Shown here: positions 11,911 to 62,180 of the stretch, piece by piece
Numbering within the stretch: position 1 is the first letter of the stretch
Layout: the number at the start of each line of letters is the position of its first letter
Assembly (NCBI GenBank): GCA_021158055.1
Contig: JAGGVJ010000040.1
Span: 4,114 to 68,113 of the forward strand
DNA from: Candidatus Iainarchaeum sp.
GTDB taxonomy: Archaea > Iainarchaeota > Iainarchaeia > JAGGVJ01
DNA: 64,000 nucleotides
Reading direction: 5' to 3'
The notes under the pieces: generated by a model
Seen by the model: only the letters and a program-made list of their open reading frames with translations
The model's database searches: none
What the model was told of the DNA's origin: nothing
Position numbers and translations under genes: made by a program

Positions 11911-11948
11911 CTTGAACAAATTGCCATTTCGGAACTTTGCTAAAATAC

Positions 11949-28727: not shown

Positions 28728-28796
28728 TTGTTTCTCTCTTTCTATCTCATTACTATAATTGTTTCTCTCTTTCTATCTCATTACTATAATTGTTTC
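28728..28796. repeat. 31-bp direct repeat (ttgtttctctctttctatctcattactataa) x2 plus a partial third copy, upstream of a membrane-protein gene
   Basis: Seen directly. Lies between tRNA-Thr(GGU) and the start of the 28784..29755 gene. Confidence 0.85.
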
Positions 28797-29755
28797 AGCC
28801 AGTTAAAAATTTTGACCAGGTATTTGACCGCTAAAAGGTAGGTGGTTGCAATAAACCCAAATATCATTGCAAATACTGACACAACAATCATCACTGAAAA
28901 AGCTATTGCAAGCAGAAAAAAATCGTAAAAAAACCTGAGCGGGGTGTCTTGTTTTATCTTTTCCATGAACTGCGGCGACGACATCGCTTCAATCATTTTT
29001 GACTGGGTAAGCGACGAATACGCAAGCGTTGACTGGATAGTGCATTCTTCAAGAGTTTTTTTCAATTGCGGGTCGTCTATCGAAGACATCTGGCTCTGGA
29101 AAGACTTTTGTTTTTCAAGCTCGCTTAAAACATCTTGTCTTGAAACCGGTTCTTTCAGCGAATCTTCAACTGTCAGCTTCAAAAAATCCACAAAGTTTTC
29201 GTTTGCAACCTGCTTGAGCTCTTCCTGATAAGGCATGAACGCGGCAAGAGACGCAAACACTGAAAGGAACGTGAAAAAAAACAAGCCGTCCCTGACGGTG
29301 TTGGAAGCAAAAGAAAACATTTTGTTGTTTTCGGAATTTCGTGCCGATATCTTTTCAGAGGTTCTTGCGGTTTGAAAAAGGCCGAATGCGTTTGCAACGC
29401 CCATGAAGAAAAAAAACAGGGAAAACCCAAAATGCGGAAGCATCACAACCACTGCCACAAAATTTCCTAAAATGACTATTTGCGAGACCTGTTTTTTAAA
29501 AACCCTTGGAAAAATAAAAGCAAGCGAATAAGAAGCAGAAAAAAACAACACAAAAAGAACAAAAGGCAAAGACAAAAGCTTTTCAGAAACCTGCTCTGCG
29601 TGAGAAAACTTGAGCATGTCAGACGCTTCAAGACCGGTTTGTGAAAGCGAAAACATCCATAAAAAAGAAACAAGCAAAGTGACAGAAAAAATTATTATGT
29701 TTGCTTTTGTGCCAGCGCTTATTAACCGGTTTTTGTGTTTTTTTGATTTTTTCAT
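28784..29755 (-). CDS. Hypothetical integral membrane protein (323 aa)
   Basis: Multiple hydrophobic helices at both ends with a central polar region. No family recognised. Confidence 0.5.
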   Translation of the reverse strand: MKKSKKHKNRLISAGTKANIIIFSVTLLVSFLWMFSLSQTGLEASDMLKFSHAEQVSEKLLSLPFVLFVLFFSASYSLAFIFPRVFKKQVSQIVILGNFVAVVVMLPHFGFSLFFFFMGVANAFGLFQTARTSEKISARNSENNKMFSFASNTVRDGLFFFTFLSVFASLAAFMPYQEELKQVANENFVDFLKLTVEDSLKEPVSRQDVLSELEKQKSFQSQMSSIDDPQLKKTLEECTIQSTLAYSSLTQSKMIEAMSSPQFMEKIKQDTPLRFFYDFFLLAIAFSVMIVVSVFAMIFGFIATTYLLAVKYLVKIFNWLKQL

Positions 29756-45195: not shown

Positions 45196-45259
45196 TCAGA
45201 CACTGTTCCTTTATTCAATTGCTTATCACATCTCTCAGATTTCTCAAATTTCTCAAGCA

Positions 45260-48200
45260 TTACACTTCTTCAAAAGTCACTATGCAGTTGTCGTGCTGTG
45301 CAATATACACGTCGAGTGCCCAGCATGCGCCTGCAATTGCTGCGCTTCCCAACGGGTTGATTCTCTTTACTTTTTTTAATGACTCAAGTTTTTTCTCGGT
45401 TTCTTCAACACCTTTTGTCATTTCATTGCTTTTAGCCACAAACTCACTGTGTTTTTCCGTGTTTTTCAAAAGCGCGTCTGTTACGTCATCCCCTTCGTCG
45501 CTAAAGTTAACACCTTCGTCTGCAAGAGAACGTAAGTCAGTTTCCAGTTGCCCTTTACGGGCGGTCAACTCGTTTTGCGTTTCAAGCAGTTTTTCTTTAC
45601 CCAGCGCTCCTCCCTCTATCTTTCCCTGCAACTTCCAAACATTTTCAAACTGCTCGTTTACTTTTTTAAGATTTTCAACTCTTTCCGCTTCAAATTCACT
45701 GAACATTTTCTGGGTGTCTTTCACTTCTTTCAAAAGTTCCCTGCGCACAGTCAATTCTTTATTTGACGCATCCATCGTTTTCACTATGTCACCGGACAGC
45801 TTGTTTAACTCGCCGGTTTCCTTTACAAGATTTGTTTTGCCCTGCTCTAACGTCTGAATGCCTTTTTTAAGATTACTGGTATCTATTTCAATTTTCTTGA
45901 AATCACTTAAAGATGTCAAAACATTATCAAGAGCAGAATCATAACCCATTGTCAGGTTAGAGAACGCGCTATTTCCCTTGATTTCACTTACTGCATCTGC
46001 CAGTTTGGCCGGGTCGTCCCCCTTATTCACCATGTCCCTGAAGTCTGTGATAAATTTTCGATCCATATCATCTAATGTGTCCCCCGGAGCAGTCATAAAT
46101 TCATCAATACCTTCCAAAAGCACTTGTTTATTCTGTTTAAAAAGATGGCCTGCATCGTCAAGACGGGGACTGAGATCATTTAACGCAGCCCTGTTTTGAG
46201 TTATGGTTTCCTCAATGCCTTTCACTTGCTCCATGTTCAGATTCATGGTGTCATTTGCATTCTTGAAAGCCGATTCCAACCCCTTGACATCAAGTTCTGC
46301 CGGTTTTGTTTTGCTGAGATTATCCAACACATCCTTTAATGCCTTTTTTGAATCATCAATTTCTTTATTGACGGTGTCCAGTGCATCCAAATGCGCTTTA
46401 TAAACAAGATCATCACCCATCCCGGCCGTATCTATCTTCATGCCTGCCAGTATGGCGTCTCTTTCTTTAGTCAAACCAGCTACTTTGCCGTCTAATTTAC
46501 TTATATCATCTTCTAACCTGGCTATTTCATCCAGAGTATCTGCATATTTACTCCATTTGCCTGCCGCGTTCTTGTATGATTCGGCTATTTCTTTCTTGAT
46601 ATTATAGTTGTCAAGATAATTCTTATTGCCCAAAACCAGCAACTTAAGCTGTTTTCCAGACGAGTCAAGTGCATCCGGTTCAAGAACCTGTGAAGCTACT
46701 GCTCTTTGTATCTTGAACTGCCTGATTGCCGGATACAAACGTCTAAACGGCTGCGCAAGAGCCCCTTTTACTTTTTTTAACTTGCCGCTGCTTTCAACGA
46801 CTTCTTCCCCGAGCTTCTTGTAAGAACAAATAGCTCCCGCAGCTGTGGGGCCGGCAGTAATCCCTGCGGCTATCATCGGGGTGTAATAAGGTGAACGCGT
46901 CAAAGTGCTGATGTCAGTGAAGCCCTCCCCTGCTTCTTTGAACTTATTCTTATAGGCCATGTGGTCAAAGCCAACCTTCAGTATTTCGTCAACAACCAAA
47001 AAGTCAACCAACTGGTCAGCTACGAAAAGCCCGGCACTGGCTCCCGCGCCTGCCGGGTTCCAGGACATCAATGCTGCCCCGCCCCTGGCCACTGCAACCC
47101 CTGTCACAATCGTGCAGGCTGAATTCATTGCAGGGCAAGTGTTGATTGTCGGGCTTTCCTTGATTTCAATGTTCATCCTCAGTTTGACACCGTCATCACC
47201 CTTCATAACCTTTTCATTTCCATCCTCAGTCGTCATCAATCCGCTCCACCTTATTTCCGGCCTGCAGCTGTGGCAGTCATCTGTCAACATACTCTCGCCC
47301 CAAAAGTCAGATGAAAACGTGCTTCCCCAAAATTTTTCATCAACATCTGCAACGCACGTGGCCCAAGCGGGCTCGTTTTCCTTGTCCCTCAGGTTATGTA
47401 TTTTATCTCTGAAAACATCTTTTGTGAAATCTTCTCCCGTGTACTTGATTTTGTACCCGCCGTAGATTCCTGTGCCGGTGTCAAAAGAAATCAGCGCCGC
47501 AGTGCATTCACAGGCAATAAGACTTGCCAGCGCTTCAGCATCTTTCACAATCAAAGTCCGCCCGTCCTTGTCAACTTCCACCCTGCCCTCAAACTCAGGC
47601 AATATTATTTTCCAATTTCCATTGGCAAACACGCACTCGTTTCTGCCCGCGTCTTTTGCGTTCAAAGGAGCTTCAGTCAAACCCGTAATCACAAACGAAT
47701 CAATCTTTGCCCTGTCGCCTTCACGTTTTGAAGTGGACTGCGACCCGAAATAACAACCGATCGGTTTTGCTCCGGAAGCAATCTCAACAAAAGCACTCAC
47801 TGCTGTTCCAATTGATTTGTTGAGATCTTCTGATGAGTCTCCAAGAGCATTCTTGTCAATCACCAATTCAAAAATATTACTGCCGAACTTGGAAACATCG
47901 TGGTGAATCACACCGTAAGCTGGGTAGCCGATGTCCTTATTAAGAATATCAACCAATTCGCTTTCTTCTTTAGTCAAATTAGCCGAATCCCTAAAGAGCA
48001 ACTTGACAACGTTTTTTCCGCCGACGACATCAAGAGATGTTTTTACCCTGCCATCTTTTTCAAGCAAATTATAATCCAGTTCAGTTCCGCTTAAACCCGA
48101 AGCGATTTCTTCAACTATTCCCTTAAAACTGTCTTCTTCGTTCTTAGGAATTACAAAAACTGTGTTTTTCATTTCAGCTGCATCTTCCGAACTCAGGTTA

Positions 48201-51200
48201 TCCCAAGGCAAAAGAGTGCTCATGTGAAGTGCGTTTCCTTCACAGGCAGCTGTTTCACCGACATAGCTCGTTTCTACAAAGATACTGAACTGACTGCCTA
48301 TTTCACCATCACGGGCAAAAAACACCGGCTTGAACTTTACTTTGTACCAACCGCATTTCCTAAGTAACTCTTCCGAGTCATAATCATTGTGTGAATCATA
48401 ATCATTGTGTGAATCATAACCATAGTGTGAATCATAATCATAGTGTGAATCATAATCATAGTGTGAATCATAATCATAGTATATGTCTCCACCGGTGCTT
48501 ATTCTACCTGAATTCACCATTTCTCTGTAATCACCGCTCACTATCTGCCCGTTAAAGTAACGTGAAACAACATTGGTTTTTGCCCGTTTCAACGCTTCTA
48601 AAGTCACCCGGTCATCCATCAGGAACAAGTCAACCCCGTTTAATATCCAGTCATCCTGCGGAACAAGACCTGACTGAAGCAACTCTTCAAAAGTGCAGAT
48701 GTTTCTTTTAGATGACCCGCACCCGATATCCCTGATTTTCTTGCCTTCAAATGCTGTCAGTATCTTATCCATGAACCGGTCTGCTTTTTCAATTACATAT
48801 TCAGCGGCCTGCATCCCATCACAGTACCCGTCACTGCAGTCCCCGCTCAAACCTGCTTTTGTCGGAATCGAGACAGTTTTTGTTATCCCGATATCCGGGT
48901 CGCATGAGTGAACCAGATACTCTGTCGTGAAATCGGATGTCTTCAAATCAGAGCCTATTTCCACGTTTATCATTATAAGCTCGCTTAAAATTTCTGTATC
49001 TGAAGATGTTTCACCTGCAATGAAAACACCTTTCTGGAAGCTGTCACTCACTATAGCTGCTCTTTTGGACACTCTTTTCAACCTAAAGTCAAACTGCGCG
49101 GTTTCACCGTCAAAAAGAGACCTTTTTGAACCTTCTGAAAAGTCAATGTACAACCTGAAATCGTTAAGAGGAATGAAATCGACAAACCTGGTTATCCTTT
49201 TGCCGCACTCGTTCTTGATAACAACTGAACTTTTTATTTCATCAAAGTAAGCAGTTGTTGAAACAAAATCAATTGACTCCGAACTGATTACCTTCAGGCA
49301 ACCTTCTTCTTCGGGAACTATTTCCACAATCAAGCCCACTTCCCTTGAAACTGAAGTGACTTTTCCCGGCTTGTTCTTATAATAGACATCTGCGTCGATA
49401 ACAAGAGTCCCGGTCATTCTCCCTGCCTCTCCGCTGTAACCTGAAGCATCAACTTCAATTTCAAAATGAGTTGTGTCTTCCGGTTCAAGCTCATCTATTG
49501 TTGACGATGCTTCAGTCTCGCTCAAATAATTCACATAAATATTCGGGTTGATCTCCCAGTCTTCTGCTTTTTCACTTATCCTAATGTTTTTGAAAGTAAC
49601 CGAACCGCGGTTTTTCAAGACAAGTTTTTCTGCATTGCCGTCCAGTATATCAAGCGATTCCCCCGCCTTGAGCTTTAGCTTTACCTTGTTCTCAACATCA
49701 AGGGCTGCTGCCTCGTCAAGGAACACCACTGCATAGTCAAGCTCTCCTGAAACGTCCTGCGAGCCGTTTTCCCCCCTGAAAACAAGGGTTCCGACAACAT
49801 CATCATCTTCAGCGTTGTTCTCGCTGTCATCCAAAGTGTCTGCCTGGAAAGTCACAAGGACAGTCGCCTTGTTCTCGCCTGAAAGCGAATCAGCTGAAAG
49901 CAATTCTATAACTGTACTTTCTTCTTCACCTGTCCCTTCAATCACCTGGTTTCCGTTGCAGTCAAGGACAAAAATTCCACCGTCAAGATCATTGCTGGAA
50001 TAAGCGACAATGTTTGACAAATCAATCCCACAATTGTTTTTCAAAACGACTTCCATTGAATTGAACGCAGTGTCAAGGTCTTCTGAGCCGACCACAAACT
50101 CTGTCTGCGACGGGGTCACTTCAAGGCATTCCGCAATTACCTGCGCGTCTATTTTCGGCGCGTACAAGAGTTTTATCCTTCCCTGCGCTGTCACATACTC
50201 GTTGTCTTTCACTGCAAATATCTTGATTGTGGCCTCGGCTGACGCGGAATCCGTCGAGTCAGGGAAATAACCTGAAGTGAACGTGAGGTAAGTTGTCTCG
50301 CCAGGCCCGAGCAATCTTGTGATTGATGCGTCGTCGAGCTCCAAGCTGAAATCATCATCCGGAAAGCCCTCGTCGCGTTCAACTACAACCTGCAGGTCAG
50401 TGAGTTTTTTGCTTGAGCTATTTTTTATGGCAAGCTGTTTTGTCGCGGTTTTTATATTAAGGGGAATCTCAATCACAAACGGGTCTTCGTCAATTGCGAT
50501 CGCCGCTTCTTTTCCGACACGCACAAGAATTGTCTCTTCGGCAAAGTGATCTGCTGAAACATTTACTGCAATGACTCCCGAGGCAGGCTCAATTGTGGTT
50601 GCGTAGACGCCGTTTCTTCCGCGGTTTCTCTTGTCTTTTCCTGTAATTGTTATTGTTTTGTTTCCAAGCGGTTTCCCGATGTTGTTGACCAGTTTTATCG
50701 TGGCGTCGGTAACTGCTTCAAAATCTCCCGCGCGAAGCACTGTTATCATAAACTGGGTTTTTTCACCTGCAACAGCCATTTCCGGCTCAACGAAAACACT
50801 GAGCCCCAGTCCCGCAACAACTTTAAGGAACAGCTCTTTTTCAATCAGCACTTCACCTGACCTTTTCACAATTATTTTTACTGAAGCCGAGTTGTTTTCA
50901 GCTGTCGGGACAAACACTGCCTCAAGGCCTGTTCCCCTGTTTTTCCCAAGGCTTTCAAGGTTGACTGCAAGCGCGTGCGCTTCGTCATCAAGCTGTGTCT
51001 GGGTTCCAAGGTAATGGTATGACACAAAGTCAAGCGATGCGTCAGAATTTAAAATTTCCACCTGCAAATCTTCAAGGTCTTGTTTTGCCTGCACTTCGAT
51101 TCCAAGCGAGTAGACCGCGCTCAAGTACGCCTCACTTGCAGTCAGGTCCTTGATTTCTTCCCCGGTTATTGCCCTTGAAAAACCGTAATTCATGCAGATT

Positions 51201-53557
51201 TCCTGCGTGCATTCAACCGTATTTTGCGTCACTGAAAATTCAACGGGTGTGGTGGCTGCGTAAAGCGGCTGTTTTCCTTCAGAGTCAATCAAAGTTCCAA
51301 GTTCTTCGTCAAACGGGCTTCTTTCCATGCCGCCCAGGTTTATGTAAGTCCAGCCCCTGAAATTGAATTTCACTCTCTCGCCCAAAACCACGTTGTCTTT
51401 CACCTGAACTGCAAAGTCCACAACATGCGTTCCTTTCCCGACATCTTTTCCAACCACCTGCACCCACTTGTTCATCTGTCCTGAAAGCGTGGTTCCTGCC
51501 ATGTCAATATCCTGTCCAAGCGGGGGGTTGTGGGTCGTGCCTGAAGACGGTTCTCCCATCGCCTGCATCACTCCCGTGATTGCAACATTGTCTTTTGCTG
51601 AAAAGTCGTTTTCTTCAAGGCCTGTCATCAAAAACAACCCTGCCTCGTCTGACGCGGCGGCCGTGTTCAACGCGACTCTTGCGCGGTACTGCTTGCTTTC
51701 AACAACGCTTTCTACCCTGTTTCCGAACCTGTCGAACAAGCCGATGAAAACCGCGCCCGTGGAATCCGCGGGGCTGAAAAGCTGTACATCTATGCGGTTT
51801 TCTTTTGAAGAGTCAATGTTTATGACATGGGAAAAGTATTTTGCGCTGCCAGGCGATTCAACGACTGCGTAAGCCTGTATGCCTTCAACAACGTCAAACT
51901 CGGCAACCCCATTTGAATCCGTGACAGTCGGCGACGAAAGCTCTTTGCCTAAAACCGTTGCCGCATTGTCAAATAAAATCACGCTTGCTCCTGAAACCGG
52001 GTTTTCTTCTTTTGTCACTTTGACCGTGACTTTTGTCTGCGTTGCGCTTATGTCAATCATTGGTTCCTGCGTGGTCGGAGTTTCCACTGGTTTTGCCACT
52101 CCGACTTTGGAGCCGACGTATGCCTTTGCAATGACTGTCTTGTTGTTCGGAACGTCGCTGAACTCCGCGCAACCGCTTGAACCGGTCAATTCTGACGGGA
52201 TTCCCAGCACTTTTGACGCAGTCTCAAAAAGAACAACCGGCACACCGTTTAACGGTGCCTTGGTGTCTTCTTCGCGGACACACACTCTAAGGGTTGATGT
52301 ATTTTCCTTGGTTGACAGCTCCATTGAAGCCAAAACTGATTCCCCTGCCCCGACATCTGTCCTGACAAACGGGACATAGTTGCCTGAGTAGACAGAAACC
52401 ATGTATTTTTTTGACTTGTCCACAAGAACTTTTCCTGTCCCGTCGATGTCCTGCGATTTCACGAGAACGCCGTCCAGATAAACGTTTACGGCTGCTTCAA
52501 GGGGTGTTCCGGTCATGGTTCTTGCAGTGACGTTTATAAAGTCGCTGTTTGCAAAATCAGCTGTTGAAATAATCATTTCAAGTTTGTTTTCAGCGTTTGA
52601 AAGGACCTGAACGGCTTTTTCAGTCTGGCTCAAGTACTCTTCTTTTGACACCGTCACGTTGTAAAGTCCTGGTATCAGCCCTCTTAAAACTGTTTTTCCG
52701 TCAACGTCGGTCTTTTCAGAAGACGCGAGTTCTGCAACGCCTTTTGGGCGGGCTTCAACCTCCGCTCCTTCAACTGCATCGCCGTTTATGTCTTCAATGT
52801 AAACCAGTAAATCTGCAGGTTCGCTTTCATCGGCTTCAAGGCTTATGGAGAGCTCCTGGTCTGAGTTGAACGTGAATGTTTCGCTTTTTTCCTGATAGCC
52901 CGGGGATGTGAAAACAAGGTCAATGTCTTGTCCCTGCGGAACTATCGCTTCAATTACCCCGTTTTCTTTTATGGTGTATGTTCCAAGGTCTTCTCCTTCT
53001 TTCATTACCTTGACTGTGCCTTCCCTTACAATGCTGTCAAAATCGGTTGTGACTCTCATCACTACTTTCACGTTTGTTTTTTCAAGTTTTGAAAGCGAAA
53101 AATCCTGCTGAAGCGAAGTGAAATAAAAGGATTTGTCAAGGGTTTCGTAGTCATACTTTGTTATCTCTACTGTGCCGTAACTATTGAGCTTGTCGAAATT
53201 TTCTATTGTTGCAATTCCTTTTGAATCGGTTTTTCCGATAAACGAGCTTAAGGTATCCGGGTAGGTTATCCTGACATCAGCCCCTTCAATGGCTGCTCCT
53301 GTTTCCGCATCAACGACTTTTACCTGAAGCGTTCCAGAGGCGGGGGTGCCAAGCATGAAAAACGCGACAAGCCCAATGAAAAAAATCGTCAAAAATAACG
53401 GGAAAACAGGTATGTTCTTGTCTTCAAGCGCGTCTATTACGCGGTAAACAGGGATTCCGTGGTCATCCACAAAATCCATCAAACCAAAAAACTTGTTTTC
53501 CACGCCGTAATAAAAGTCGTTCAAATTGTCTTTAACTGACTTGGATGCCAACTTCAT
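45260..53557 (-). CDS. Giant N-terminally anchored surface protein (2765 aa); paralogous architecture to 38389..44628, with (DYDSHY)n repeat and C-terminal coiled coil
   Basis: N-terminus LNDFYYGVENKFFGLMDFVDDHGIPVYRVIDALEDKNIPVFP + TM, colinear with the N-terminus of the 2079-aa protein. CarbopepD_reg-like repeats (TLQVKVVDAETGAAIEGADVRITY...). HYDYDS tandem repeat. ~450-aa coiled coil. C-terminal LMSWNPAGAGASAG motif shared with the other giant. Confidence 0.8.
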   Translation of the reverse strand: MKLASKSVKDNLNDFYYGVENKFFGLMDFVDDHGIPVYRVIDALEDKNIPVFPLFLTIFFIGLVAFFMLGTPASGTLQVKVVDAETGAAIEGADVRITYPDTLSSFIGKTDSKGIATIENFDKLNSYGTVEITKYDYETLDKSFYFTSLQQDFSLSKLEKTNVKVVMRVTTDFDSIVREGTVKVMKEGEDLGTYTIKENGVIEAIVPQGQDIDLVFTSPGYQEKSETFTFNSDQELSISLEADESEPADLLVYIEDINGDAVEGAEVEARPKGVAELASSEKTDVDGKTVLRGLIPGLYNVTVSKEEYLSQTEKAVQVLSNAENKLEMIISTADFANSDFINVTARTMTGTPLEAAVNVYLDGVLVKSQDIDGTGKVLVDKSKKYMVSVYSGNYVPFVRTDVGAGESVLASMELSTKENTSTLRVCVREEDTKAPLNGVPVVLFETASKVLGIPSELTGSSGCAEFSDVPNNKTVIAKAYVGSKVGVAKPVETPTTQEPMIDISATQTKVTVKVTKEENPVSGASVILFDNAATVLGKELSSPTVTDSNGVAEFDVVEGIQAYAVVESPGSAKYFSHVINIDSSKENRIDVQLFSPADSTGAVFIGLFDRFGNRVESVVESKQYRARVALNTAAASDEAGLFLMTGLEENDFSAKDNVAITGVMQAMGEPSSGTTHNPPLGQDIDMAGTTLSGQMNKWVQVVGKDVGKGTHVVDFAVQVKDNVVLGERVKFNFRGWTYINLGGMERSPFDEELGTLIDSEGKQPLYAATTPVEFSVTQNTVECTQEICMNYGFSRAITGEEIKDLTASEAYLSAVYSLGIEVQAKQDLEDLQVEILNSDASLDFVSYHYLGTQTQLDDEAHALAVNLESLGKNRGTGLEAVFVPTAENNSASVKIIVKRSGEVLIEKELFLKVVAGLGLSVFVEPEMAVAGEKTQFMITVLRAGDFEAVTDATIKLVNNIGKPLGNKTITITGKDKRNRGRNGVYATTIEPASGVIAVNVSADHFAEETILVRVGKEAAIAIDEDPFVIEIPLNIKTATKQLAIKNSSSKKLTDLQVVVERDEGFPDDDFSLELDDASITRLLGPGETTYLTFTSGYFPDSTDSASAEATIKIFAVKDNEYVTAQGRIKLLYAPKIDAQVIAECLEVTPSQTEFVVGSEDLDTAFNSMEVVLKNNCGIDLSNIVAYSSNDLDGGIFVLDCNGNQVIEGTGEEESTVIELLSADSLSGENKATVLVTFQADTLDDSENNAEDDDVVGTLVFRGENGSQDVSGELDYAVVFLDEAAALDVENKVKLKLKAGESLDILDGNAEKLVLKNRGSVTFKNIRISEKAEDWEINPNIYVNYLSETEASSTIDELEPEDTTHFEIEVDASGYSGEAGRMTGTLVIDADVYYKNKPGKVTSVSREVGLIVEIVPEEEGCLKVISSESIDFVSTTAYFDEIKSSVVIKNECGKRITRFVDFIPLNDFRLYIDFSEGSKRSLFDGETAQFDFRLKRVSKRAAIVSDSFQKGVFIAGETSSDTEILSELIMINVEIGSDLKTSDFTTEYLVHSCDPDIGITKTVSIPTKAGLSGDCSDGYCDGMQAAEYVIEKADRFMDKILTAFEGKKIRDIGCGSSKRNICTFEELLQSGLVPQDDWILNGVDLFLMDDRVTLEALKRAKTNVVSRYFNGQIVSGDYREMVNSGRISTGGDIYYDYDSHYDYDSHYDYDSHYGYDSHNDYDSHNDYDSEELLRKCGWYKVKFKPVFFARDGEIGSQFSIFVETSYVGETAACEGNALHMSTLLPWDNLSSEDAAEMKNTVFVIPKNEEDSFKGIVEEIASGLSGTELDYNLLEKDGRVKTSLDVVGGKNVVKLLFRDSANLTKEESELVDILNKDIGYPAYGVIHHDVSKFGSNIFELVIDKNALGDSSEDLNKSIGTAVSAFVEIASGAKPIGCYFGSQSTSKREGDRAKIDSFVITGLTEAPLNAKDAGRNECVFANGNWKIILPEFEGRVEVDKDGRTLIVKDAEALASLIACECTAALISFDTGTGIYGGYKIKYTGEDFTKDVFRDKIHNLRDKENEPAWATCVADVDEKFWGSTFSSDFWGESMLTDDCHSCRPEIRWSGLMTTEDGNEKVMKGDDGVKLRMNIEIKESPTINTCPAMNSACTIVTGVAVARGGAALMSWNPAGAGASAGLFVADQLVDFLVVDEILKVGFDHMAYKNKFKEAGEGFTDISTLTRSPYYTPMIAAGITAGPTAAGAICSYKKLGEEVVESSGKLKKVKGALAQPFRRLYPAIRQFKIQRAVASQVLEPDALDSSGKQLKLLVLGNKNYLDNYNIKKEIAESYKNAAGKWSKYADTLDEIARLEDDISKLDGKVAGLTKERDAILAGMKIDTAGMGDDLVYKAHLDALDTVNKEIDDSKKALKDVLDNLSKTKPAELDVKGLESAFKNANDTMNLNMEQVKGIEETITQNRAALNDLSPRLDDAGHLFKQNKQVLLEGIDEFMTAPGDTLDDMDRKFITDFRDMVNKGDDPAKLADAVSEIKGNSAFSNLTMGYDSALDNVLTSLSDFKKIEIDTSNLKKGIQTLEQGKTNLVKETGELNKLSGDIVKTMDASNKELTVRRELLKEVKDTQKMFSEFEAERVENLKKVNEQFENVWKLQGKIEGGALGKEKLLETQNELTARKGQLETDLRSLADEGVNFSDEGDDVTDALLKNTEKHSEFVAKSNEMTKGVEETEKKLESLKKVKRINPLGSAAIAGACWALDVYIAQHDNCIVTFEEV

Positions 53558-53729
53558 ACCCCCGATAACCTAAATAATCACATGCGGAATTAAACCGCAT
53601 TAACTTTGTTGCAACAAAAATATAAGTTTTAATAATTGAAACACTTCAGCATATATATTCTTTTTTATATACTGTTATAATACAACACATATCCGGACAC
53701 AAAACCACCATGTCCACCATATACATTGT

Positions 53730-55526
53730 TTAACAACTTTCGCTTGCTGAGCCGGTGCACATGTCACACGACGATACTGACATGAAGTTGTCAACACACT
53801 GGAGATCAAGCCCTTCAACATAAGGCAACGTGCTCCTTGTTGCCCCCTTCCATTCTTCCTTGAGGTCTGCCCTTACACTGTCACTTACACTGTTTTCCCT
53901 TGCCAGTGAAACGCAGAACACAAACGGGACAGAAATGCCCCCGTCATCGGATGTCGTTGAACTCATCGGGGCTTCCATCGGGTGATAAATAATCTGGTTT
54001 TCTTCCGGTTCAAAATGAGTTGTCCCGTAACCCCCCGGTATTCCAAACCCCTTATCCACAATGGTAAAACAGGCATAAGCAGCTTCCGGAACCTGCGCGC
54101 AAAGCGCCGGCTTCAGGTTTACCTGGTCTCCAAAAGGATTTGAAATAATGCCTGATTCAGGGTACTGCACATAAGAAGTGCTTCTTGAGCACCCGTCAAA
54201 AACACCTGCTCCGTTGTCAACAGTGTACCTGAAGTACTTTGTGGGGAAAACCACTTTTTCAAGGAAACCTAAAGAATGCCTGTTTTTACTTGAATTCAGC
54301 CCTTCGCGAATAAAAAACTGCGCGCCTGAAAAAACACCATCAATTTTCCCCCTGTACTCAAGAGTGTCAAAATACAACGGCGCAAATTCAATGTTGCCGG
54401 CACTTGACTTCAGTTCCGAATTATTGCCTGAAAGAACACCCCCTATTTTTTCTGAAACACTGTCCATGTAACTTTCGGCAGTTATCTCGCCTGAAGCATA
54501 AACATCGTCGTATTCTGAATCAAGGCATTTTCTTTCAAAATCCGTTTCAAAATACGGGGGGGTTTTGGGGTCATAGTGCACCCACACCGGCAAAGAAACT
54601 TCCGAAGAATCCGAAACAGCCACTGAAATTTCTTTTGTGCAGTCAAGCCGTGATTTTTTTCCAAAATACTCTGCTTCACCATAAATTTTGCAATCCACAG
54701 GATAATCCGACCCCCTCGTCATGCAATCGCATCCCTGTGCGCCTGTTGATTCCAGGTCGCACAAGCCCCACGGTTTTATTTTACCAGGCCCCTCCAGATT
54801 CAGAATTTCGTCCTGGATCGCAAAGGCAATGTCTGCTGCTTTCATAAACCTTATCGGAACAGGGACAATCAGGCTTCCCTCCGGGATCACAGAACTGACG
54901 CTTTCTTCCCCAGTGAGATTGTTTGTCATGACTATCCGCGCAATCTCATCGTTGCTTAAGTCGGCCGGGGGCTTTATTTCCACTGCAAACGAACCGTCTT
55001 TTGAACTGAAACAATCATCTGGAAAAACAAAAATATTATATCTTGTGAGGCTGCCGACCAATCCAATACTATAGTCCCCGATATTTACAAGGTGTTCTGA
55101 ATCAGTATCTTTAAACTCTCCAACCACGTCAAAAACGCTTGAAGTCATATTTGTCAATAAACTTGTCCTGACACCGGATTCAAAAAAATCCTTCACGACC
55201 GTGCAAAAAGTGCCGCGGTCAGTTGAAACAAAAATGGCTTCTTCAAGGTCGTTGTTAAAATACTTCTTCAAAAACATATTGTGGGTCTGGGCCTTAAACT
55301 GAAAAATCACCGTGTGAATCGCATCCATCCTTGCAAAATCAAGAGTCGCCGACTCCTTCAGAGAAGACTGGTAGTCAACAATGACACTGACCCTGTTTTT
55401 TTCAGTGTTTATTATGTTTACTATCATTACAAGAGCAATTACAAGAATCACCATCCCGACAAGCGGGGTAAACAATGTAAACCCTTTTTTCATCTTTTGC
55501 GACACTGACATACCAGGCAACCAGGT
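53730..55526 (-). CDS. Large (~598 aa) cysteine-rich protein with class III (prepilin-like) signal peptide; candidate filament-associated adhesin
   Basis: From ATG at 55526: MKKTWLPGMSVSQKMKKG|FTLFTPLVGMVILVIALVMIVNII, a charged N-terminus, K-G, then a ~22-aa hydrophobic stretch, which is the archaeal prepilin pattern. More than 20 Cys. The listed ORF extends to 55802 only by reading through a 21-bp tandem duplication and would overlap the neighbouring gene. Confidence 0.6.
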   Translation of the reverse strand, partial: TWLPGMSVSQKMKKGFTLFTPLVGMVILVIALVMIVNIINTEKNRVSVIVDYQSSLKESATLDFARMDAIHTVIFQFKAQTHNMFLKKYFNNDLEEAIFVSTDRGTFCTVVKDFFESGVRTSLLTNMTSSVFDVVGEFKDTDSEHLVNIGDYSIGLVGSLTRYNIFVFPDDCFSSKDGSFAVEIKPPADLSNDEIARIVMTNNLTGEESVSSVIPEGSLIVPVPIRFMKAADIAFAIQDEILNLEGPGKIKPWGLCDLESTGAQGCDCMTRGSDYPVDCKIYGEAEYFGKKSRLDCTKEISVAVSDSSEVSLPVWVHYDPKTPPYFETDFERKCLDSEYDDVYASGEITAESYMDSVSEKIGGVLSGNNSELKSSAGNIEFAPLYFDTLEYRGKIDGVFSGAQFFIREGLNSSKNRHSLGFLEKVVFPTKYFRYTVDNGAGVFDGCSRSTSYVQYPESGIISNPFGDQVNLKPALCAQVPEAAYACFTIVDKGFGIPGGYGTTHFEPEENQIIYHPMEAPMSSTTSDDGGISVPFVFCVSLARENSVSDSVRADLKEEWKGATRSTLPYVEGLDLQCVDNFMSVSSCDMCTGSASESC

Positions 55527-55539
55527 TTTTTTCATTTTA

Positions 55540-55581
55540 ACACCTTTATCTTCAAAAACACTTTGTTTGTCTTCAAAAACA
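55540..55581. repeat. 21-bp tandem duplication (tcttcaaaaacactttgtttg / ...gcttg) in the 5' leader of the pilin-like gene
   Basis: Seen directly. Produces the spurious KQSVFEDKQSVFEDK in the extended ORF. Confidence 0.85.
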
Positions 55582-55608
55582 CTTTGCTTGCACCTTACAT
55601 AAATTGCT

Positions 55609-56250
55609 TTACCTGTCCCTTGCTTTCTGCAAAAACTGTTTTGCCGAAAAACCTGCTTTTTCAAGCCAACCGATATACCTTTCAAGCCACCCAAGGTACC
55701 ATGCGGCATAAAACACAAACGTAAACACAAAAAGGCTTGCCCTGAAAAGCGTATTGTGGGTGAAATCCGCTGCTTCCCAGCCAAACCACACCCCGGTTGC
55801 AAGAGTCAATGCAATGCGGACCGGGTTAAACAAAAGAACTGCAAAAAAGCCAAGCCCCGCGCCGACTGCCCTGCTTTTCAGAGTCCTGTCAGTGCTTGAA
55901 AAGACAGCCGCAAAAAGAACAGCTATTTCAAGGTCGCCTGAGCAAATCCTTGAAATCACTGCCGTGAACGGGTAAAACAGGTCAGAAAAAATCAACGGCG
56001 CAGCCCCTGAAAAAATACCGGGCGTCATTTCTGCCCTGATTCCCAAAACCGCAAGCACTGCAACTGCAGAAACCGCGCTGAATGCCTGCAAAAGAGGGGT
56101 GAGCAAAAGGGAAATCAAAAACGAGACCGCTAAAAAAAGAACTGAAAATAATGCCGTGAACTTTGCTGCCCGGATTAACTCAAAACGAAGAATATTTATT
56201 GGAATACGCACTTTTTTCACCTTATGGGTGAAATGGATAAGGGCAAACAT
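55609..56250 (-). CDS. Exosortase/archaeosortase-family membrane protein (213 aa, short form)
   Basis: Polytopic membrane protein with SRICSGDLEIAVLF (the family's conserved C-S-G active-site Cys region) followed ~38 aa later by FNPVRIALTL (conserved N-x-x-R) and then H (FTHN). The ATG at 56250 overlaps the ATPase start head-to-head, so one of the two starts is probably misplaced. Confidence 0.55.
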   Translation of the reverse strand: MFALIHFTHKVKKVRIPINILRFELIRAAKFTALFSVLFLAVSFLISLLLTPLLQAFSAVSAVAVLAVLGIRAEMTPGIFSGAAPLIFSDLFYPFTAVISRICSGDLEIAVLFAAVFSSTDRTLKSRAVGAGLGFFAVLLFNPVRIALTLATGVWFGWEAADFTHNTLFRASLFVFTFVFYAAWYLGWLERYIGWLEKAGFSAKQFLQKARDR

Positions 56251-58518
56251 GTAATTAAAAGTGAGGGTGGCAAAAAAACCCTTGTAATCGATTACAGGAA
56301 CTCAAAAACCGGGGCAGACATCGCAGAATACGCCGACTGCATGGAACAAGTGCTCTCTCTTTTGAGAACAAACGACGCTGACTTAGTGGTTTTGGCTGAC
56401 CTGTATGAAAGGGTCTACGACGAAAAGCAGACAAAAATGCTCAAAGAAATAGCTGACCTGGCAAATTTGTTTGAAACAGAAAACCTTTGGGGCTACACAT
56501 ATCTCGGAAACGTAAAAACAGAAAGCGAAGTGACTTTAAGCGAGAGGCACAACCTGGTGGTCAAAATTGCCCACGACCTGCTTTTGCGCGACCCGATAAA
56601 GGCATACCTGACTCTTCTTGACACCCTGAAAAAAGAAAAAATGAGAGCAAACGCAGGAGGAAAAACCTATCCCGTCGTGTTCCTGAAAACACTGGTGTTT
56701 GTCAAAAACAAGCTTGAGGCAACCAATCTTATTTCCGTCACAAAAAACCTGATTTTAAGGCTTCACAAAGTCCCGACGGGACGAGGTTTTTATCACTCGT
56801 TTTTTGACGCGCAGATAAAGCCGTCTTTTGTGGGTTCAAGGCTTCTTTTCAAAACCGACGAAAAAGTTGAACTGGTTGACCAGTACAACGTTCTTGACGC
56901 GGAAGTGCGGGTCTACAGGCACCCTGAAAAAATCGCTTTAATGTATTACATCAACCCGCCCGAGTACTCGCTTTCGCCTGAAAAATACTTCATCTTGACA
57001 AAAACAAAAGAAGTCGTTGCAAAATACAGGCCCACAAACACAGAATTTTCAGATGCTTCCCAGTCAAGGAAATACTTCGAGCACATTTACCAGGCAACCA
57101 TAAACGACATTGCAAAAGAAAACAGCATTTCCATCTCACCGCGGGAAAAAGAAGCGCTTGCAAAAATAGTGGCGCGCTACACAATCGGCTACGGCGTGCT
57201 TGAACTCCTGTTGTCTGACAGGAAACTGACAGACGTTTACCTTGATGCGCCTCTCGGAACCAAACCTATTTATGTTGTTCACGGCGAATACGGGCAGTGC
57301 CAGACAAACGTAATCTTCACAAACGAAGAAGCCCGCTCAACAGTATCCCGGCTCAGGGCGCTTTCAGGCAGGCCTTTTGACGAAGCCCACCCTGTCATGG
57401 ACTTTAACCTATCCTCGCTCCAGACAAGGGTCGCAGTCATCGGCCAGCCCCTCAGCCCGCACGGCATAGCGTTTGCGTTGAGGCTTCACAAGACCACTCC
57501 CTGGACTTTGCCCCAGTTCATTGACGCGCACATGATTGACCACCACACAGCAGGCCTTTTGAGCTTTCTCGTGGACTCAAAGGCATCCATGCTCATAACC
57601 GGCTCAAGGGGTTCGGGAAAAAGCTCCATGCTTACCGCGCTCATGCTTGAGATCCTTCAAAACCTGAGAATCATCGTCCAGGAAGACACCCTTGAAATTC
57701 CCGCGCCGTACCTCAAAAGCATCGGCTACAACATCCAGCAGCTCAAAACCCAGAGTGCGATTTCCGTGGGAAGAACCGAAAACGAAGTAAGCCCTGACGA
57801 GGCATTGAGAACAGCGCTTCGTCTGGGTGACTCTGTCCTGATCGTGGGTGAAGTGAGATCAAAAGAAGCAAGAGTGCTTTACGAGGCAATGCGTATCGGC
57901 GCGGTGGGAAACGTTGTCATGGGGACCATTCACGGCGAAAGCGCTTATTCCGTGTGGGACAGGATTGTAAACGACCTTGAAGTGCCGAACACTTCCTTCA
58001 AGGCAACCGACATGGTCCTTGTCCAGGCCCCTGTTAGATTCAAGGGCTCGCTCAAACGGCACAGGAGAGTAATCCAGCTGACTGAAGTGAAAAAGCACTG
58101 GCAAAACGACCCTGCCGCAGAAGAGGGGCTTCTTGACCTGCTCTCTTTTGACGCTTCAAAAGACGGGTGGGACCTGTTAAAGGACAACTTCAAGGACTCC
58201 GAGTACTTCCCGAAACTCAAGCGCACAACCGGCATGAGCATTGAGGAAATATGGAAGGACATAAAACTGCGCGGAGAATCAAAAAAATACCTTGTCGACT
58301 CAAAAAACAAATTTGAAATCCCTGCTCTTCTGGAAGCCGAAAACACTGTTCCGATGAACAACAAATTACTGCTGATGGCTGAAGAAATGCGCAAATCCGG
58401 CGGAGGCATGGACTACGACAAGCTTCTTGAATCATGGAAAAAATGGGTTGACAACCGGTATGTGAAAGAAATAATTGCAAAAAAAAGGCTTGTTTCAACA
58501 CGTAAAATCAAAAGGTGA
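56224..58518 (+). CDS. Type IV pilus/archaellum-type secretion ATPase (FlaI/TadA/GspE/VirB11 superfamily) with ~250-aa N-terminal extension
   Basis: 764 aa. Walker A LITGSRGSGKSSMLTAL, Asp/Walker B box SVLIVGEVRSKEA and His box VVMGTIHGESA. Typical family members are ~450-550 aa. Confidence 0.85.
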   Translation: MGEMDKGKHVIKSEGGKKTLVIDYRNSKTGADIAEYADCMEQVLSLLRTNDADLVVLADLYERVYDEKQTKMLKEIADLANLFETENLWGYTYLGNVKTESEVTLSERHNLVVKIAHDLLLRDPIKAYLTLLDTLKKEKMRANAGGKTYPVVFLKTLVFVKNKLEATNLISVTKNLILRLHKVPTGRGFYHSFFDAQIKPSFVGSRLLFKTDEKVELVDQYNVLDAEVRVYRHPEKIALMYYINPPEYSLSPEKYFILTKTKEVVAKYRPTNTEFSDASQSRKYFEHIYQATINDIAKENSISISPREKEALAKIVARYTIGYGVLELLLSDRKLTDVYLDAPLGTKPIYVVHGEYGQCQTNVIFTNEEARSTVSRLRALSGRPFDEAHPVMDFNLSSLQTRVAVIGQPLSPHGIAFALRLHKTTPWTLPQFIDAHMIDHHTAGLLSFLVDSKASMLITGSRGSGKSSMLTALMLEILQNLRIIVQEDTLEIPAPYLKSIGYNIQQLKTQSAISVGRTENEVSPDEALRTALRLGDSVLIVGEVRSKEARVLYEAMRIGAVGNVVMGTIHGESAYSVWDRIVNDLEVPNTSFKATDMVLVQAPVRFKGSLKRHRRVIQLTEVKKHWQNDPAAEEGLLDLLSFDASKDGWDLLKDNFKDSEYFPKLKRTTGMSIEEIWKDIKLRGESKKYLVDSKNKFEIPALLEAENTVPMNNKLLLMAEEMRKSGGGMDYDKLLESWKKWVDNRYVKEIIAKKRLVSTRKIKR

Positions 58519-58522
58519 AAAA

Positions 58523-60730
58523 GTGCGCGAAAGAAAAAAACAAAACCAGGCAAACAGAAAAACCCGCGACACCGAAAACATTGATGTCAAGCTCCCGGGA
58601 TCACTGATTTACGGGGAGCGCGAAACAGATCCGGTCACAAAAACCGCTGATTCAAAAAAACCAGGAAAAAGCGGTTTTGTGAAATTCTGCAAGTGGAGCT
58701 ACAGGCGCATAAAATCAAAAAACTCCAAATTTGACGAAAAATACAGGCAGGCAATTGACTTTCTCGGCTGGAACCTCACTGCAGACGAGTTTGCTTCAGG
58801 ACAGAAAATGTCTATGGTCCTTGGTTTTGCATTGTCTGCAGTGATTGGACTGTGCGCATCCTACTTTGGCCTGATTTCATTATCAGGCGGCATTTCAATG
58901 GACAATCTTCCATTCCTTGGCATGCTTGCGGTGATTCCGATGGCCGCTTCGGCGATGGTTGTCAAAATGCCTTTAAACGCTGCCGAAACAGAAAAAATGA
59001 ACTCCATGACTTACGTTCCTGAAATCGTAAATTACCTTGTCATGAGCATGAAGCTGTCGCCAAACCTTGAAAAGGCAATCCAGTTTGCTGCAGAGCACGG
59101 GCGGGGAAAGATCGCCGACGATTTCAAAAAGCTGTTGTGGGACGTTGACATCGGAGTATACAACACTGTTGAGGAAGGCCTTGACGACCTCGCGTACAAA
59201 TGGGGGGACTACAGTTCTGTCCTGAAACACGCCTTGATGCAGATTCGCGCTTCAGTGATTGAGGCAAACGATGCAAGGCGCCTTGCGTTGCTTGACAAGG
59301 CGGTAGCCGATGTCATTGAAGGAATCAAGGCGGAAATGAGCACTTACTCGCGAAAACTGCACGCGCCCGCGATTTACCTTTATTACCTCGGGGTCCTCCT
59401 GCCGCTTATGCTTGTGATCATCCTGCCTATCGGCTCCGTGTTTACCGGGGCAGGCCTTGCTGACAGGAACCTCTTGTTTGTGCTCTACAACATAATCATA
59501 CCGACAGCCACTTTCCTTTTTGCAAGAAACCTCCTCAAAAAAAGACCCCCGACTTACACCCCGCCGGTCATCCCCGATGACTTTCCGGGAATCCCCCCAA
59601 AACACAAGTTGTTTTACGGGAAAAACAAAAAAACATTCCCTGTCCTGGCACTTGCAATAATTGCTGCTTTGGCTGTTCTCCTGTTTTCATTCATGGCAAA
59701 CAACACAATTACTCAGCTTAGCTTTTCAGGCACCGACTTTGGCATCGACCCTTTTCACATGGTCACGCTTGAAGAGGCAAAAAACAACATCTGGGGAACT
59801 TTCAACGACACCGGGTTTGAATGGGGCGGAATAAAATATGTCACTCCGATCTGGATGATCTACGGAGTTCTTTTATCGGTTGTTTCCTTTATTTCAGTTT
59901 ACCTTTACTTTGACTCAAAATACAAAAAAGAAGCCCAAGACCACATCAAAAAACTTGAGGACGAATTCAACGACGCGATTTACGTGCTTGCCTCAAGGCT
60001 CGGTGAAAACAGGCCCATGGAAGAAGCCCTTTCCCACTCTGTCAAGTTTTTGGGTCCGGGTTCTCTTGTCGGGACCGAGATTTTTGCAACAATCACCAAA
60101 AACATATCAATGATGGGCCTGACCTTGCGATCCGCAATCTTTGACTCAAATTACGGGGCGCTGAAACATGTTCCCTCCAACCTGATCCAAAGCGCAATGA
60201 CCATCTTAAGCGACTCGGTAGAGCTCGGGACAAACGTTGCGGCGCGCTCGATTATGTCTCTTTCCTCGCAGATCCGGGATTCAAAGAAAATCGACGAGAA
60301 CTTGCGCAAAATGCTTGAGGATCTGACTTCCATGATGAACTCAATGGCGATAATGATTGCCCCCATGGTTCTTGGAATCACCACCGCGCTGCAGAAAATC
60401 GTGCTGAATGCCCTGACCAATATCACAAAAGCGACAAGTCCTGGCGGAGCGAGCGCTGCAATGGGGACAGGCGGAATGGGCAATATGCTCTCAGGCGCAG
60501 GCAGCGCCCAGCAGGCAGCAAACATAATCAACCCCACTGATTTCCTTTTGATAATCGGGTTTTACGTGATTGAGCTTGTCATCATTTTGATGTATTTCAC
60601 CATGAACATCCAGGAAGGGGACAACAAAATAATAGTCAAGATGGCCATTGCAAAAATCCTGCCTGTTGCAATCATATTTTTCATAATAAGCACTCTTCTT
60701 GCAAACAATTTGATAGCAAACGCGGGTTGA
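58523..60730 (+). CDS. Type IV filament platform membrane protein (TadC/FlaJ/PilC-like, T2SS-F type), unusually long
   Basis: ~735 aa. Cytoplasmic basic N-terminus then many TM helices. Immediately downstream of the ATPase and upstream of the pilin genes. The listed ORF starts at TTG 58475, inside the ATPase. GTG 58523 (5 bp after the ATPase stop) or ATG ~58810 are alternatives. Assignment rests mainly on context and topology. Confidence 0.6.
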   Translation: MRERKKQNQANRKTRDTENIDVKLPGSLIYGERETDPVTKTADSKKPGKSGFVKFCKWSYRRIKSKNSKFDEKYRQAIDFLGWNLTADEFASGQKMSMVLGFALSAVIGLCASYFGLISLSGGISMDNLPFLGMLAVIPMAASAMVVKMPLNAAETEKMNSMTYVPEIVNYLVMSMKLSPNLEKAIQFAAEHGRGKIADDFKKLLWDVDIGVYNTVEEGLDDLAYKWGDYSSVLKHALMQIRASVIEANDARRLALLDKAVADVIEGIKAEMSTYSRKLHAPAIYLYYLGVLLPLMLVIILPIGSVFTGAGLADRNLLFVLYNIIIPTATFLFARNLLKKRPPTYTPPVIPDDFPGIPPKHKLFYGKNKKTFPVLALAIIAALAVLLFSFMANNTITQLSFSGTDFGIDPFHMVTLEEAKNNIWGTFNDTGFEWGGIKYVTPIWMIYGVLLSVVSFISVYLYFDSKYKKEAQDHIKKLEDEFNDAIYVLASRLGENRPMEEALSHSVKFLGPGSLVGTEIFATITKNISMMGLTLRSAIFDSNYGALKHVPSNLIQSAMTILSDSVELGTNVAARSIMSLSSQIRDSKKIDENLRKMLEDLTSMMNSMAIMIAPMVLGITTALQKIVLNALTNITKATSPGGASAAMGTGGMGNMLSGAGSAQQAANIINPTDFLLIIGFYVIELVIILMYFTMNIQEGDNKIIVKMAIAKILPVAIIFFIISTLLANNLIANAG

Positions 60731-60738
60731 TCTCAAAA

Positions 60739-61221: not shown

Positions 61222-61395
61222 CAAAAAAACAATAACAATAAATAATATCAAACACAATTCAGTATTCACTAAGAATATTAATCAAATCCAGTATTTGCTA
61301 AAAATATCAATCAATGTCAATACACTAAAATATTACAAAAATATTAAGATATTATCAAAAAAGATATTATAAAAATCTTCAGAAAAGGTGATTCA

Positions 61396-61821: not shown

Positions 61822-61876
61822 AGCGAAAGCTTGAACAAAACTGAAGCAAAAGCTTAACAAAAAAGAGGTATGAAAA

Positions 61877-62176: not shown

Positions 62177-62180
62177 ACCG

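Follow-up and report, generated by a model that had tools for sequence, protein, structure and literature searches.

The DPANN archaea, Iainarchaeota among them, are for the most part uncultured, and contact with other cells is presumed to run through their surface structures. In a 64,000-nucleotide (nt) stretch of contig JAGGVJ010000040.1 from Candidatus Iainarchaeum sp. (the window), a six-frame open reading frame (ORF) of 690 amino acids (aa), which starts at TTG 55802 on the minus strand (53730..55802), joins a 21-bp tandem duplication to a segment resembling the N-terminus of a prepilin. This locus raises the question of whether the long ORF is the gene and, if it is not, what the true product is and what the duplication does. 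We found that the 690-aa ORF is an inflated artefact and that the real gene encodes 601 aa; that its product is best read, from its sequence, as a prepilin-type surface protein with a class III signal; and that the duplication is non-coding, recent and specific to one strain lineage. We hold with moderate confidence the explanation that takes all of this together, in which the protein would be class-III-processed and pilin-like and would display its C-terminal module on a pilus-like fibre.

Start and product of the gene

The first 89 codons of the 690-aa ORF run through the 3' end of an archaeosortase-like gene on the same strand (55609..56250), overlapping it by 194 nt in another frame. An in-frame start scan placed the first ATG past the stop of that gene at 55535-55533, which is also where the 89%-identical homologue P0002 begins. 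A Shine-Dalgarno-like GGTG (55541..55544, minus strand) lies 5 nt before this ATG, in the context aaaGGTGttaaaATG, and GGTG is found 5-8 nt before the ATG in many genes of the window. Translation from ATG 55535 yields a 601-aa product (53730..55535, minus strand, stop codon included) that begins MKKTWLPGMSVSQKMKKGFTLFTPLVGMVILV, and 583 aa of it remain after the proposed cleavage.

An earlier sequence-only reading of this DNA had recognized that the ORF was inflated and overlapped an archaeosortase-family gene, and had given both the N-terminus of the product and a start just past the repeat, which inspection of the ribosome-binding site (RBS) supported: the GGTG upstream of the ATG is conserved in both close relatives. 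It had put the length at ~598 aa, with ~580 aa beyond the signal. The ATG had been assigned to 55526 rather than 55535 and the upstream extension measured as 276 bp, where we counted 267 bp (89 codons). Its count of more than 20 cysteines was not borne out either, since the 601-aa product contains 16 (2.7%) and 21 are reached only with the spurious extension.

Two close relatives allowed the start to be compared across lineages. One (L001) is 92.4% identical to the window at the nucleotide level and encodes a protein 89% identical to the target; the other (L009) shows 81% nucleotide and 64% protein identity, carries the NCBI label of a Candidatus Diapherotrites hypothetical protein, and sits on a contig that ends inside the target gene. 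Alignment of the upstream regions revealed that the ATG and the GGTG are both retained in L001 (aaaggtgttgagATG) and L009 (cgggtgtaaagATG), while the extended frame is closed in L001 by a stop 13 codons upstream of the ATG. No RBS was present at the upstream candidate starts of the 690-aa ORF, and no homologue with an upstream extension aligned in the family alignments and N-terminal statistics. Because relatives do not conserve the longer N-terminus, an ortholog comparison that the earlier reading had itself proposed, the short 601-aa form stands.

That the full ORF from TTG 55802 is nevertheless translated, making a KQSVFED repeat part of the protein, is scarcely credible. Its frame is open in the window strain, and both nucleotide differences between the repeat copies are silent in the extended frame; it would, however, overlap a conserved archaeosortase-family gene over 194 nt in another frame, it meets an in-frame stop and a single repeat copy in L001, and neither an aligned homologue nor an upstream RBS accompanies it. 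The silent differences were considered separately as a sign that the extension is translated, and this argument was rejected, as only two changes are concerned and the L001 stop lies in the same frame.

Further starts exist within the shorter frame, namely ATG 55511, which gene callers chose for P0001, and ATG 55493, which would leave a leader, MKKG, of the short type typical of the family. With a leader of 18 aa against a family mode of 5, the start could be ATG 55493, and this is a point against our placement. Translation would then begin MKKG directly before FTLF..., with a 4-residue leader, and the 42 nt from 55535 to 55493 would be 5' untranslated. Most family members indeed have leaders of 4-7 residues, a Met at position -4 is kept in the window, L001 and L009, and the 42-nt stretch has accumulated three non-synonymous changes and one synonymous change between the window and L001 and differs in both sequence and length in L009. 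Poor conservation is, however, normal for leader regions, and the frame is open from the first ATG in all three lineages; ATG 55493 lacks a ribosome-binding motif, whereas in 3/3 lineages ATG 55535 is preceded at the right spacing by the GGTG typical of the genome. We therefore consider the downstream start improbable and ATG 55535 the most likely one, and the mature protein would be identical either way.

The N-terminal signal and its family

The first 18 codons (55482..55535, minus strand) encode a predicted class III leader, MKKTWLPGMSVSQKMKKG, which is followed by FTLFTPLV..., so that cleavage would fall after Gly18 with Lys at -2, Gly at -1 and Phe at +1. Directly after this site, codons 19-41 (55413..55481, minus strand) encode a hydrophobic helix, FTLFTPLVGMVILVIALVMIVNI, according to alignments, N-terminal statistics and an AlphaFold2 (AF2) model. 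An exhaustive phmmer (HMMER) search with the target retrieved 52 proteins with E values down to 3e-9, and a search seeded with the member P0041 retrieved 101 relatives. In a 48-sequence family alignment F19, L21, F22 and T23 are invariant, and among 83 homologues with complete N-termini, position -2 is K or R in 73, while -1 is G or A, +1 is F and +5 is T in every one (83/83 each). The mature N-terminus of the family thus reads F(T/N)LFTAL and continues into a hydrophobic stretch of ~23 residues. Leaders in the family have a median length of 7 residues, 5 being the commonest value, as compared with 18 to 24 in the target and its two closest relatives.

In archaeal prepilin-peptidase substrates, positions -2, -1 and +1 are decisive, -2 is basic and a Glu at +5 is frequently lacking (PMC3387779). 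The N-terminal signature of the family matches this rule and would be hard to explain by a mere signal anchor, and the class III signal proposed in the sequence-only reading is upheld by a site that is nearly invariant across the 83 homologues. Cleavage by an archaeal prepilin peptidase is what this pattern suggests. The bacterial prepilin N-terminal domain (PF07963/TIGR02532, GFxxxE) gave no hidden Markov model (HMM) match, and +5 is Thr rather than Glu in 83/83.

The family has gone largely unlabelled. Members named in their source are 'hypothetical', with the exception of two that JGI labels 'Tfp pilus assembly protein PilV'; the named members come mostly from Candidatus Diapherotrites/Iainarchaeota, including GW2011_AR10, with two from Micrarchaeota and several labelled only 'archaeon'. 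No Pfam or NCBIfam match was obtained for the target and no Pfam match for any of 85 family members, neither the family profile nor the target found anything among PDB sequences, and our literature searches found no description of an F(T/N)LFTAL family. No relative turned up among GTDB species genomes searched with the target protein, and word-indexed searches returned only two near-identical relatives with the target and only the three closest relatives with the family alignment. The family is uncharacterised and lineage-restricted. More than 100 'hypothetical' proteins carry a near-invariant prepilin-peptidase site, and the confidently predicted structure of the family has no solved relative.

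Conservation in the target is confined to its N-terminal part. A module comprising residues 13-263 (54747..55499, minus strand) was delimited by hhalign, phmmer and AF2 and is predicted to consist of a long helix, a second helix, a beta-sheet and a further helix. The hhalign match between target and family (probability 99.2%, E 2.5e-19) covers residues 13-263 only, and phmmer matches span the N-terminal ~60-260 residues, the longest covering query positions 13-264. The blocks shared with the family are a Cys-Gly-Phe block and a P..R.F.A block, in which C175, G181 and F183 are invariant (alignment A3); where the family has the second Cys of a conserved pair, the target has Ser178. The remaining region, residues 264-601 (53733..54746, minus strand), contains 14 of the 16 cysteines. 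Homologues of these ~340 residues were found only in P0001 and P0002, from the closest strains, and in P0004, a fragment with 51% identity; no homologous C-terminal half was found in the wider family, where the hhalign match ends at residue 263. Judged by these comparisons, the architecture pairs a conserved N-terminal module with a C-terminal one specific to the lineage.

Structure prediction followed the same division. The AF2 model of the target has a mean predicted local distance difference test score (pLDDT) of 59, with residues 20-250 mostly at 70-95 apart from a dip at ~139-151; its elements are a helix at 22-93 (pLDDT 87-95), a helix at 107-139, a beta-sheet and a helix at 229-246. Confidence is low in the C-terminal region because the alignment is shallow there. 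The model of P0041 (pLDDT 93.4, predicted template-modelling score 0.86) has a helix at residues 3-75 followed by alpha/beta domains. Its Foldseek comparison with BFVD gave no match with E < 0.2, and the globular part may represent a new fold. The C-terminus of the target, ...SSCDMCTGSASESC, has no hydrophobic segment and does not form an archaeosortase sorting signal (a PGF-CTERM-like motif with a transmembrane (TM) helix and a basic tail behind it).

The 21-bp duplication upstream of the gene

Tandem Repeats Finder located the repeat at 55545-55590 (period 21, 2.2 copies, 92% matches, score 78), and repeat finding together with alignment resolved two full copies on the minus strand, a distal one, CAAAGTGTTTTTGAAGACAAA (55566..55586), and a proximal one, CAAAGTGTTTTTGAAGATAAA (55545..55565), which abuts the GGTG site. 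The two are 20/21 identical and share an exact core of 17 nt; an exact adjacent repeat of that length is not expected by chance in 64 kb. At three or fewer mismatches the motif has 5 matches in the window where 1.2 would be expected, none of them exact apart from the two copies themselves. The earlier reading had described a perfect duplication at 55540..55581, of which the duplication holds, while the copies differ at one position and the coordinates were ~5 nt out of register. In the codon phase used there, the copies are 19/21 identical and the extension encodes KQSVFEDKQSVFEDK across the repeat; the KQSVFED peptide repeat looks perfect because both nucleotide differences, AAG/AAA and GAC/GAT, are silent.

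The duplication lies within the 73 nt that separate the archaeosortase-like gene from ATG 55535, a spacer in which an AT-rich box, CAATTTAT (55599..55606, minus strand), is conserved in the window, L001 and L009 and is a candidate TATA-like element. The sole demonstrable effect of the duplication is to insert 21 nt between this box and the RBS, besides creating a peptide repeat in the spurious frame. In itself ordinary, the duplication matters chiefly as an annotation trap, which inflates an ORF and mimics a peptide repeat, and besides as an instance of a spacer prone to repeats.

Both L001 and L009 carry a single copy of the unit, and therefore the second copy is a recent gain in the lineage of the window. 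Five other assemblies that contain the gene (L002-L006) show virtually no difference from the window across 7.8 kb, apart from one base in L002; they represent the same strain and give no independent information on copy number. The length polymorphism that the sequence-only reading had suggested looking for in related genomes is accordingly seen as the single copy of L001 and L009 and is absent among L002-L005, which all have two copies. In L006, an ENA scaffold of the same strain, a run of 100 N at 2847-2946 falls at the junction of the copies, equivalent to window positions 55566-55569, and may mark a place where the assembly broke at the repeat or else hint at heterogeneity.

Further traces of duplication are visible nearby. 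The repeat core occurs a third time in degenerate form, AAACAGTTTTTGCAGA (13/16; 55626..55641, minus strand), within the final codons of the archaeosortase-like gene. The 3' end of that gene contains an older in-frame 21-bp tandem duplication (55659..55700, minus strand; 81% identical) encoding LGWLERY/IGWLEKA, which is common to the window and L001 and single-copy in L009. In L009 the tail of the archaeosortase-like gene reads through the 21-bp unit, which there lies within the called coding sequence. This stretch has undergone repeated duplication.

The suggestion that the repeat serves phase variation or regulation did not gain support, as there are two copies only, variation is seen only between lineages, and L002-L006 are one strain. 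In a related reading the unit would be a regulatory element, an operator or core-promoter part beside the TATA-like box, whose copy number of one or two alters expression, possibly in the manner of a contingency locus; we regard this as quite improbable. The unit is conserved above its flanks, being identical in L001 and 17/19 in L009 where adjacent intergenic bases have diverged; it is placed between the conserved CAATTTAT box and the RBS; its copy number varies between lineages; the gap in L006 falls exactly at the copy junction; and several other 21-bp arrays occur in non-coding parts of the window. On the other hand, only two copies are present, with no variation within the population among L002-L005; the location of the unit in the coding tail in L009 could account for its conservation; no enrichment of the motif was seen in the rest of the window; and the possible RNA hairpin, built from A-U and G-U pairs, is weak (z -1.6). 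When metagenome contigs were scanned for the exact pattern of the unit, nine unrelated matches attributable to chance came up and no additional variants in copy number. What influence the repeat might have on expression is conjecture.

Simple-sequence contingency loci are phase-variable repeats in the promoters or leaders of bacterial genes. The spacer shares with them a short tandem repeat between a putative promoter element and the start of a surface-protein gene, with a copy number that differs between lineages. It differs from them in having two imperfect copies of a long 21-bp unit and no observed within-population variation, and in that 21 is a multiple of three, so that even a coding repeat would leave the reading frame unchanged.

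A reading of the spacer as riboswitch-like or as an attenuator was also tried and dropped, since the leader with one or two copies folded no better than shuffled sequences (z -0.1 to -1.6). Scans for sigma-70 promoters and intrinsic terminators gave counts at background, with models that are not applicable to archaea. Short tandem arrays are common in the window, several of them of period 21. The longer 21-bp arrays lie in apparently non-coding DNA at 11823-11914 (4.4 copies, 94%) and 16177-16299 (5.9 copies, 99%; unit TTTGCAGTTTAAAATTATTCC), and only low-complexity artefact ORFs cross the two.

Gene neighbourhood and proposed role

On one side, the target adjoins genes of pilus-assembly type. 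The archaeosortase/exosortase-family gene next to it encodes 213 aa, keeps the CSG, R and H motifs and matches TIGR04178 (E 3.2e-8; 33.8 bits against a cut-off of 23), and its homologue in a distant locus, L013, matches PF09721. Beyond it, on the plus strand, lies a divergent FlaI/PilB-type secretion ATPase of 764 aa (56224..58518; PF00437, E 2.5e-19). Its NCBIfam matches to FlaI (E 7.7e-41) and TadA (E 1.1e-38) are both under the equivalog cut-offs, and that to the bindosome ATPase BasE is weak (E 1.2e-23); it is 58% identical to its counterpart in a Candidatus Iainarchaeum metagenome-assembled genome, the nearest species genome by this protein. The following gene (58475..60730, plus strand) encodes a polytopic FlaJ/TadC/PilC-like platform protein of 751 aa, with a weak PF00482 match (E 0.025) and 41-43% identity to the gene after the ATPase in another Iainarchaeum contig (L007). 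Five small pilin-like genes come next on the plus strand (60727-61221, 61396-61821, 62118-62756, 62753-63430 and 63411-63998). Their N-terminal translations show (K/R/H)G, then Q, I or F, then a hydrophobic helix, as in KGQ followed by AFDTFKLLIAAIVA, with Cys-containing C-terminal parts in 4/5; none has a Pfam match. Three of them have Q after (K/R/H)G, for example KGQ before AFDTFKLL, unlike the KG-F of the target. AT-rich spacers before two of the small pilin genes contain tandem repeats of 29, 15 and 23 bp (61239-61314, 61346-61375 and 61816-61862). Elsewhere the window encodes split RpoB, RpoA'/A'' and PurP-type enzymes, which mark the DNA as part of an archaeal chromosome.

On the other side, all on the minus strand, the target is followed directly by a giant surface protein of 2765 aa (45260..53557), with an N-terminal cytoplasmic segment, a TM helix and CarboxypepD_reg/Big_1 repeats, then by a multi-pass membrane protein of 143 aa (44764-45195) and a second giant protein of 2079 aa (38389-44628), the last two completing an arrangement also found in relatives. 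The gene order is therefore archaeosortase-like gene, target, 2765-aa, 143-aa and 2079-aa protein.

The order ATPase, archaeosortase-like gene, target is shared by the window, L001 and L009, followed in the first two by a giant protein. The family member in four distant loci (L010, L012, L013 and L014) is flanked by giant proteins of 2000-3000 aa, whose N-terminal domains are homologous to those of the giants in the window (tblastn E 1e-7 to 1e-24). A gene of ~156 aa follows the giant protein behind the family member in 3/4 of these loci; the 143-aa protein of the window gave no tblastn match to it at E <= 1e-3, and the homology rests on position and size. An archaeosortase-like gene heads the cluster in 2/4 distant loci (L012 and L013), as it does in the window, L001 and L009.

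For large signal-peptide proteins encoded by archaeal pilus loci, a role as adhesins or minor pilins has been predicted (PMC4858521). A pilus-displayed adhesin is, as a hypothesis, the best reading of the target, and the likeness to tip adhesins or large minor pilins drawn in the sequence-only reading is plausible. In the mechanism that we propose, the 601-aa protein would be made with an 18-residue basic leader, which an archaeal prepilin (class III signal) peptidase would presumably cut after Lys-Lys-Gly18, leaving a hydrophobic N-terminal helix that is predicted to continue into a ~70-residue helix and an alpha/beta module restricted to Iainarchaeota. With this helix the protein would dock into a type-IV-pilus-like fibre, or prime one, that the ATPase, platform protein and small pilins of the neighbouring genes would build, and the variable, disulfide-stabilised C-terminal region would be displayed for adhesion; filament incorporation and adhesion are steps that we infer. 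The target would probably act in concert with the giant surface proteins found alongside the family in every relative examined, and the overall logic would be that of a large or modular minor pilin.

Several findings weigh against this proposal. No pilus ATPase was found within 10 kb in L010, L012, L013 and L014, where giant genes fill the flanks, and the constant neighbours in these loci are the giant proteins, with the archaeosortase-like gene in 2/4. The Iainarchaeum contig L007 contains an ATPase, a platform protein and a pilin with no family member in its available part. No prepilin peptidase (GxGD motif, Pfam) was found in the 64-kb window, and Foldseek comparison of the target and P0041 models with the PDB gave no significant match (best E 0.32 and 0.24), either to a pilin or to any other structure.

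These points leave room for an alternative that we consider rather unlikely, in which the target is not a pilus subunit and would instead be a membrane-anchored or class-III-processed accessory of a giant-surface-protein module that also comprises the archaeosortase-like enzyme and the small membrane protein, such as an anchor, an assembly factor or an envelope component, in the manner of the bindosome. Synteny with giant proteins is kept in every locus examined, an archaeosortase-like gene stands at the head of five of the clusters, the distant loci have no ATPase within 10 kb, no structural match to pilins emerged, and the ATPase of the window also has its weak BasE match. Yet the near-invariant [KR][GA]F site argues for processing typical of pilin-like proteins, genes for pilus assembly are its immediate neighbours in the window, L001 and L009, and the protein has no C-terminal sorting signal for an archaeosortase; since giant genes fill the 10-kb flanks, an ATPase could lie slightly further off in the distant loci.

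Comparison with known systems places the proposed pilus-displayed protein among archaeal proteins of the class III signal type, with features of its own. Like archaeal class III signal proteins, it has a short basic leader, K/R at -2, G/A at -1, a hydrophobic helix at the site and no Glu at +5; like components of archaeal pilus loci, it adjoins a FlaI/PilB-type ATPase, a TadC/FlaJ-type platform protein and small pilins; and it has multiple cysteines, as do components of some archaeal pilus systems. It differs from them in the absence of a Pfam or NCBIfam pilin match, in the near-invariant F(T/N)LFTAL mature N-terminus, in a predicted first helix of ~70 residues and a globular part without a Foldseek match, and in that the linkage most strongly conserved joins it to giant surface proteins and a small archaeosortase-like gene.

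Large or modular minor pilins and pseudopilins are known in bacteria, among them GspK, CofB/TcpB, ComZ and the modular pilins of Streptococcus sanguinis. The IncI-type PilV of plasmid TP114 is also counted among the modular minor pilins (PMC9045228). The target resembles these proteins in that a conserved N-terminal module of pilin type bears a large variable C-terminal module, its GF(T)L start recalls their GFTL motif, and two family members carry the JGI label PilV. Unlike them, it has Thr rather than Glu at +5 and a basic -2 that follows the archaeal rule, with no match to the prepilin N-methylation domain and no detected similarity of sequence or fold.

The bindosome of Sulfolobus is formed by large proteins that bind sugars and carry class III signals, whose pilin-type signals do not lead to pili. 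Shared features are large globular extracellular proteins with a pilin-type signal, a dedicated pair of ATPase and membrane protein, and the lack of a classical pilin character. In contrast, no substrate-binding-protein domain was detected in the target, the ATPase scores higher as FlaI/TadA than as BasE, and the neighbours are giant adhesin-like proteins rather than transporters.

A broader reading, which we put forward only tentatively and think unlikely as it stands, takes the F(T/N)LFTAL family as the pilin-like part, with a fold of a new kind, of an undescribed Iainarchaeota surface apparatus that also includes several adhesin-like giants, the ~150-aa membrane protein and a miniature archaeosortase, in which the Cys-rich C-terminal module, exchanged rapidly in evolution, would set binding specificity and the repeat-prone spacer would tune expression. 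If true, such an apparatus might serve, for example, the attachment of small-genome archaea to partner cells. The fixed setting of the family with giant surface proteins, often with a small archaeosortase, makes it a concrete candidate for an attachment apparatus, and the family deserves a domain model.

The cluster itself recurs in Iainarchaeota (window 38389-56250, L010, L012, L013 and L014), each time with two or three giants, one F(T/N)LFTAL protein and usually a gene of ~150 aa. The giants have in common an N-terminal cytoplasmic segment, a TM helix and CarboxypepD_reg/Big_1/SpaA-like repeats, and the archaeosortase-like genes at the cluster heads are small (180-230 aa) and carry the CSG, R and H motifs. 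The classical archaeosortase sorting signal is absent from both the giants and the family protein. Within the 2765-aa giant of the window, an 18-bp array at 48378-48480 (5.7 copies, 96%) encodes YDYDSH repeats, and the cluster is closed at 37734-38372 by a 212-aa protein with 15 Cys (7%), a lipoprotein-like N-terminus (...LLSGC) and no family match.

Farther off in the window, a perfect 31-bp tandem repeat at 28726-28796 (2.3 copies) overlaps the annotated start of a 323-aa membrane-protein ORF (28784..29755) that has no family match. The region 22563-28364 encodes a 1933-aa protein in which four DUF2341 domains are accompanied by a LamG-type domain and a segment resembling fibrinogen C; for DUF2341 proteins, a role as PilY-like adhesins at the tips of archaeal pili has been proposed (PMC4858521).

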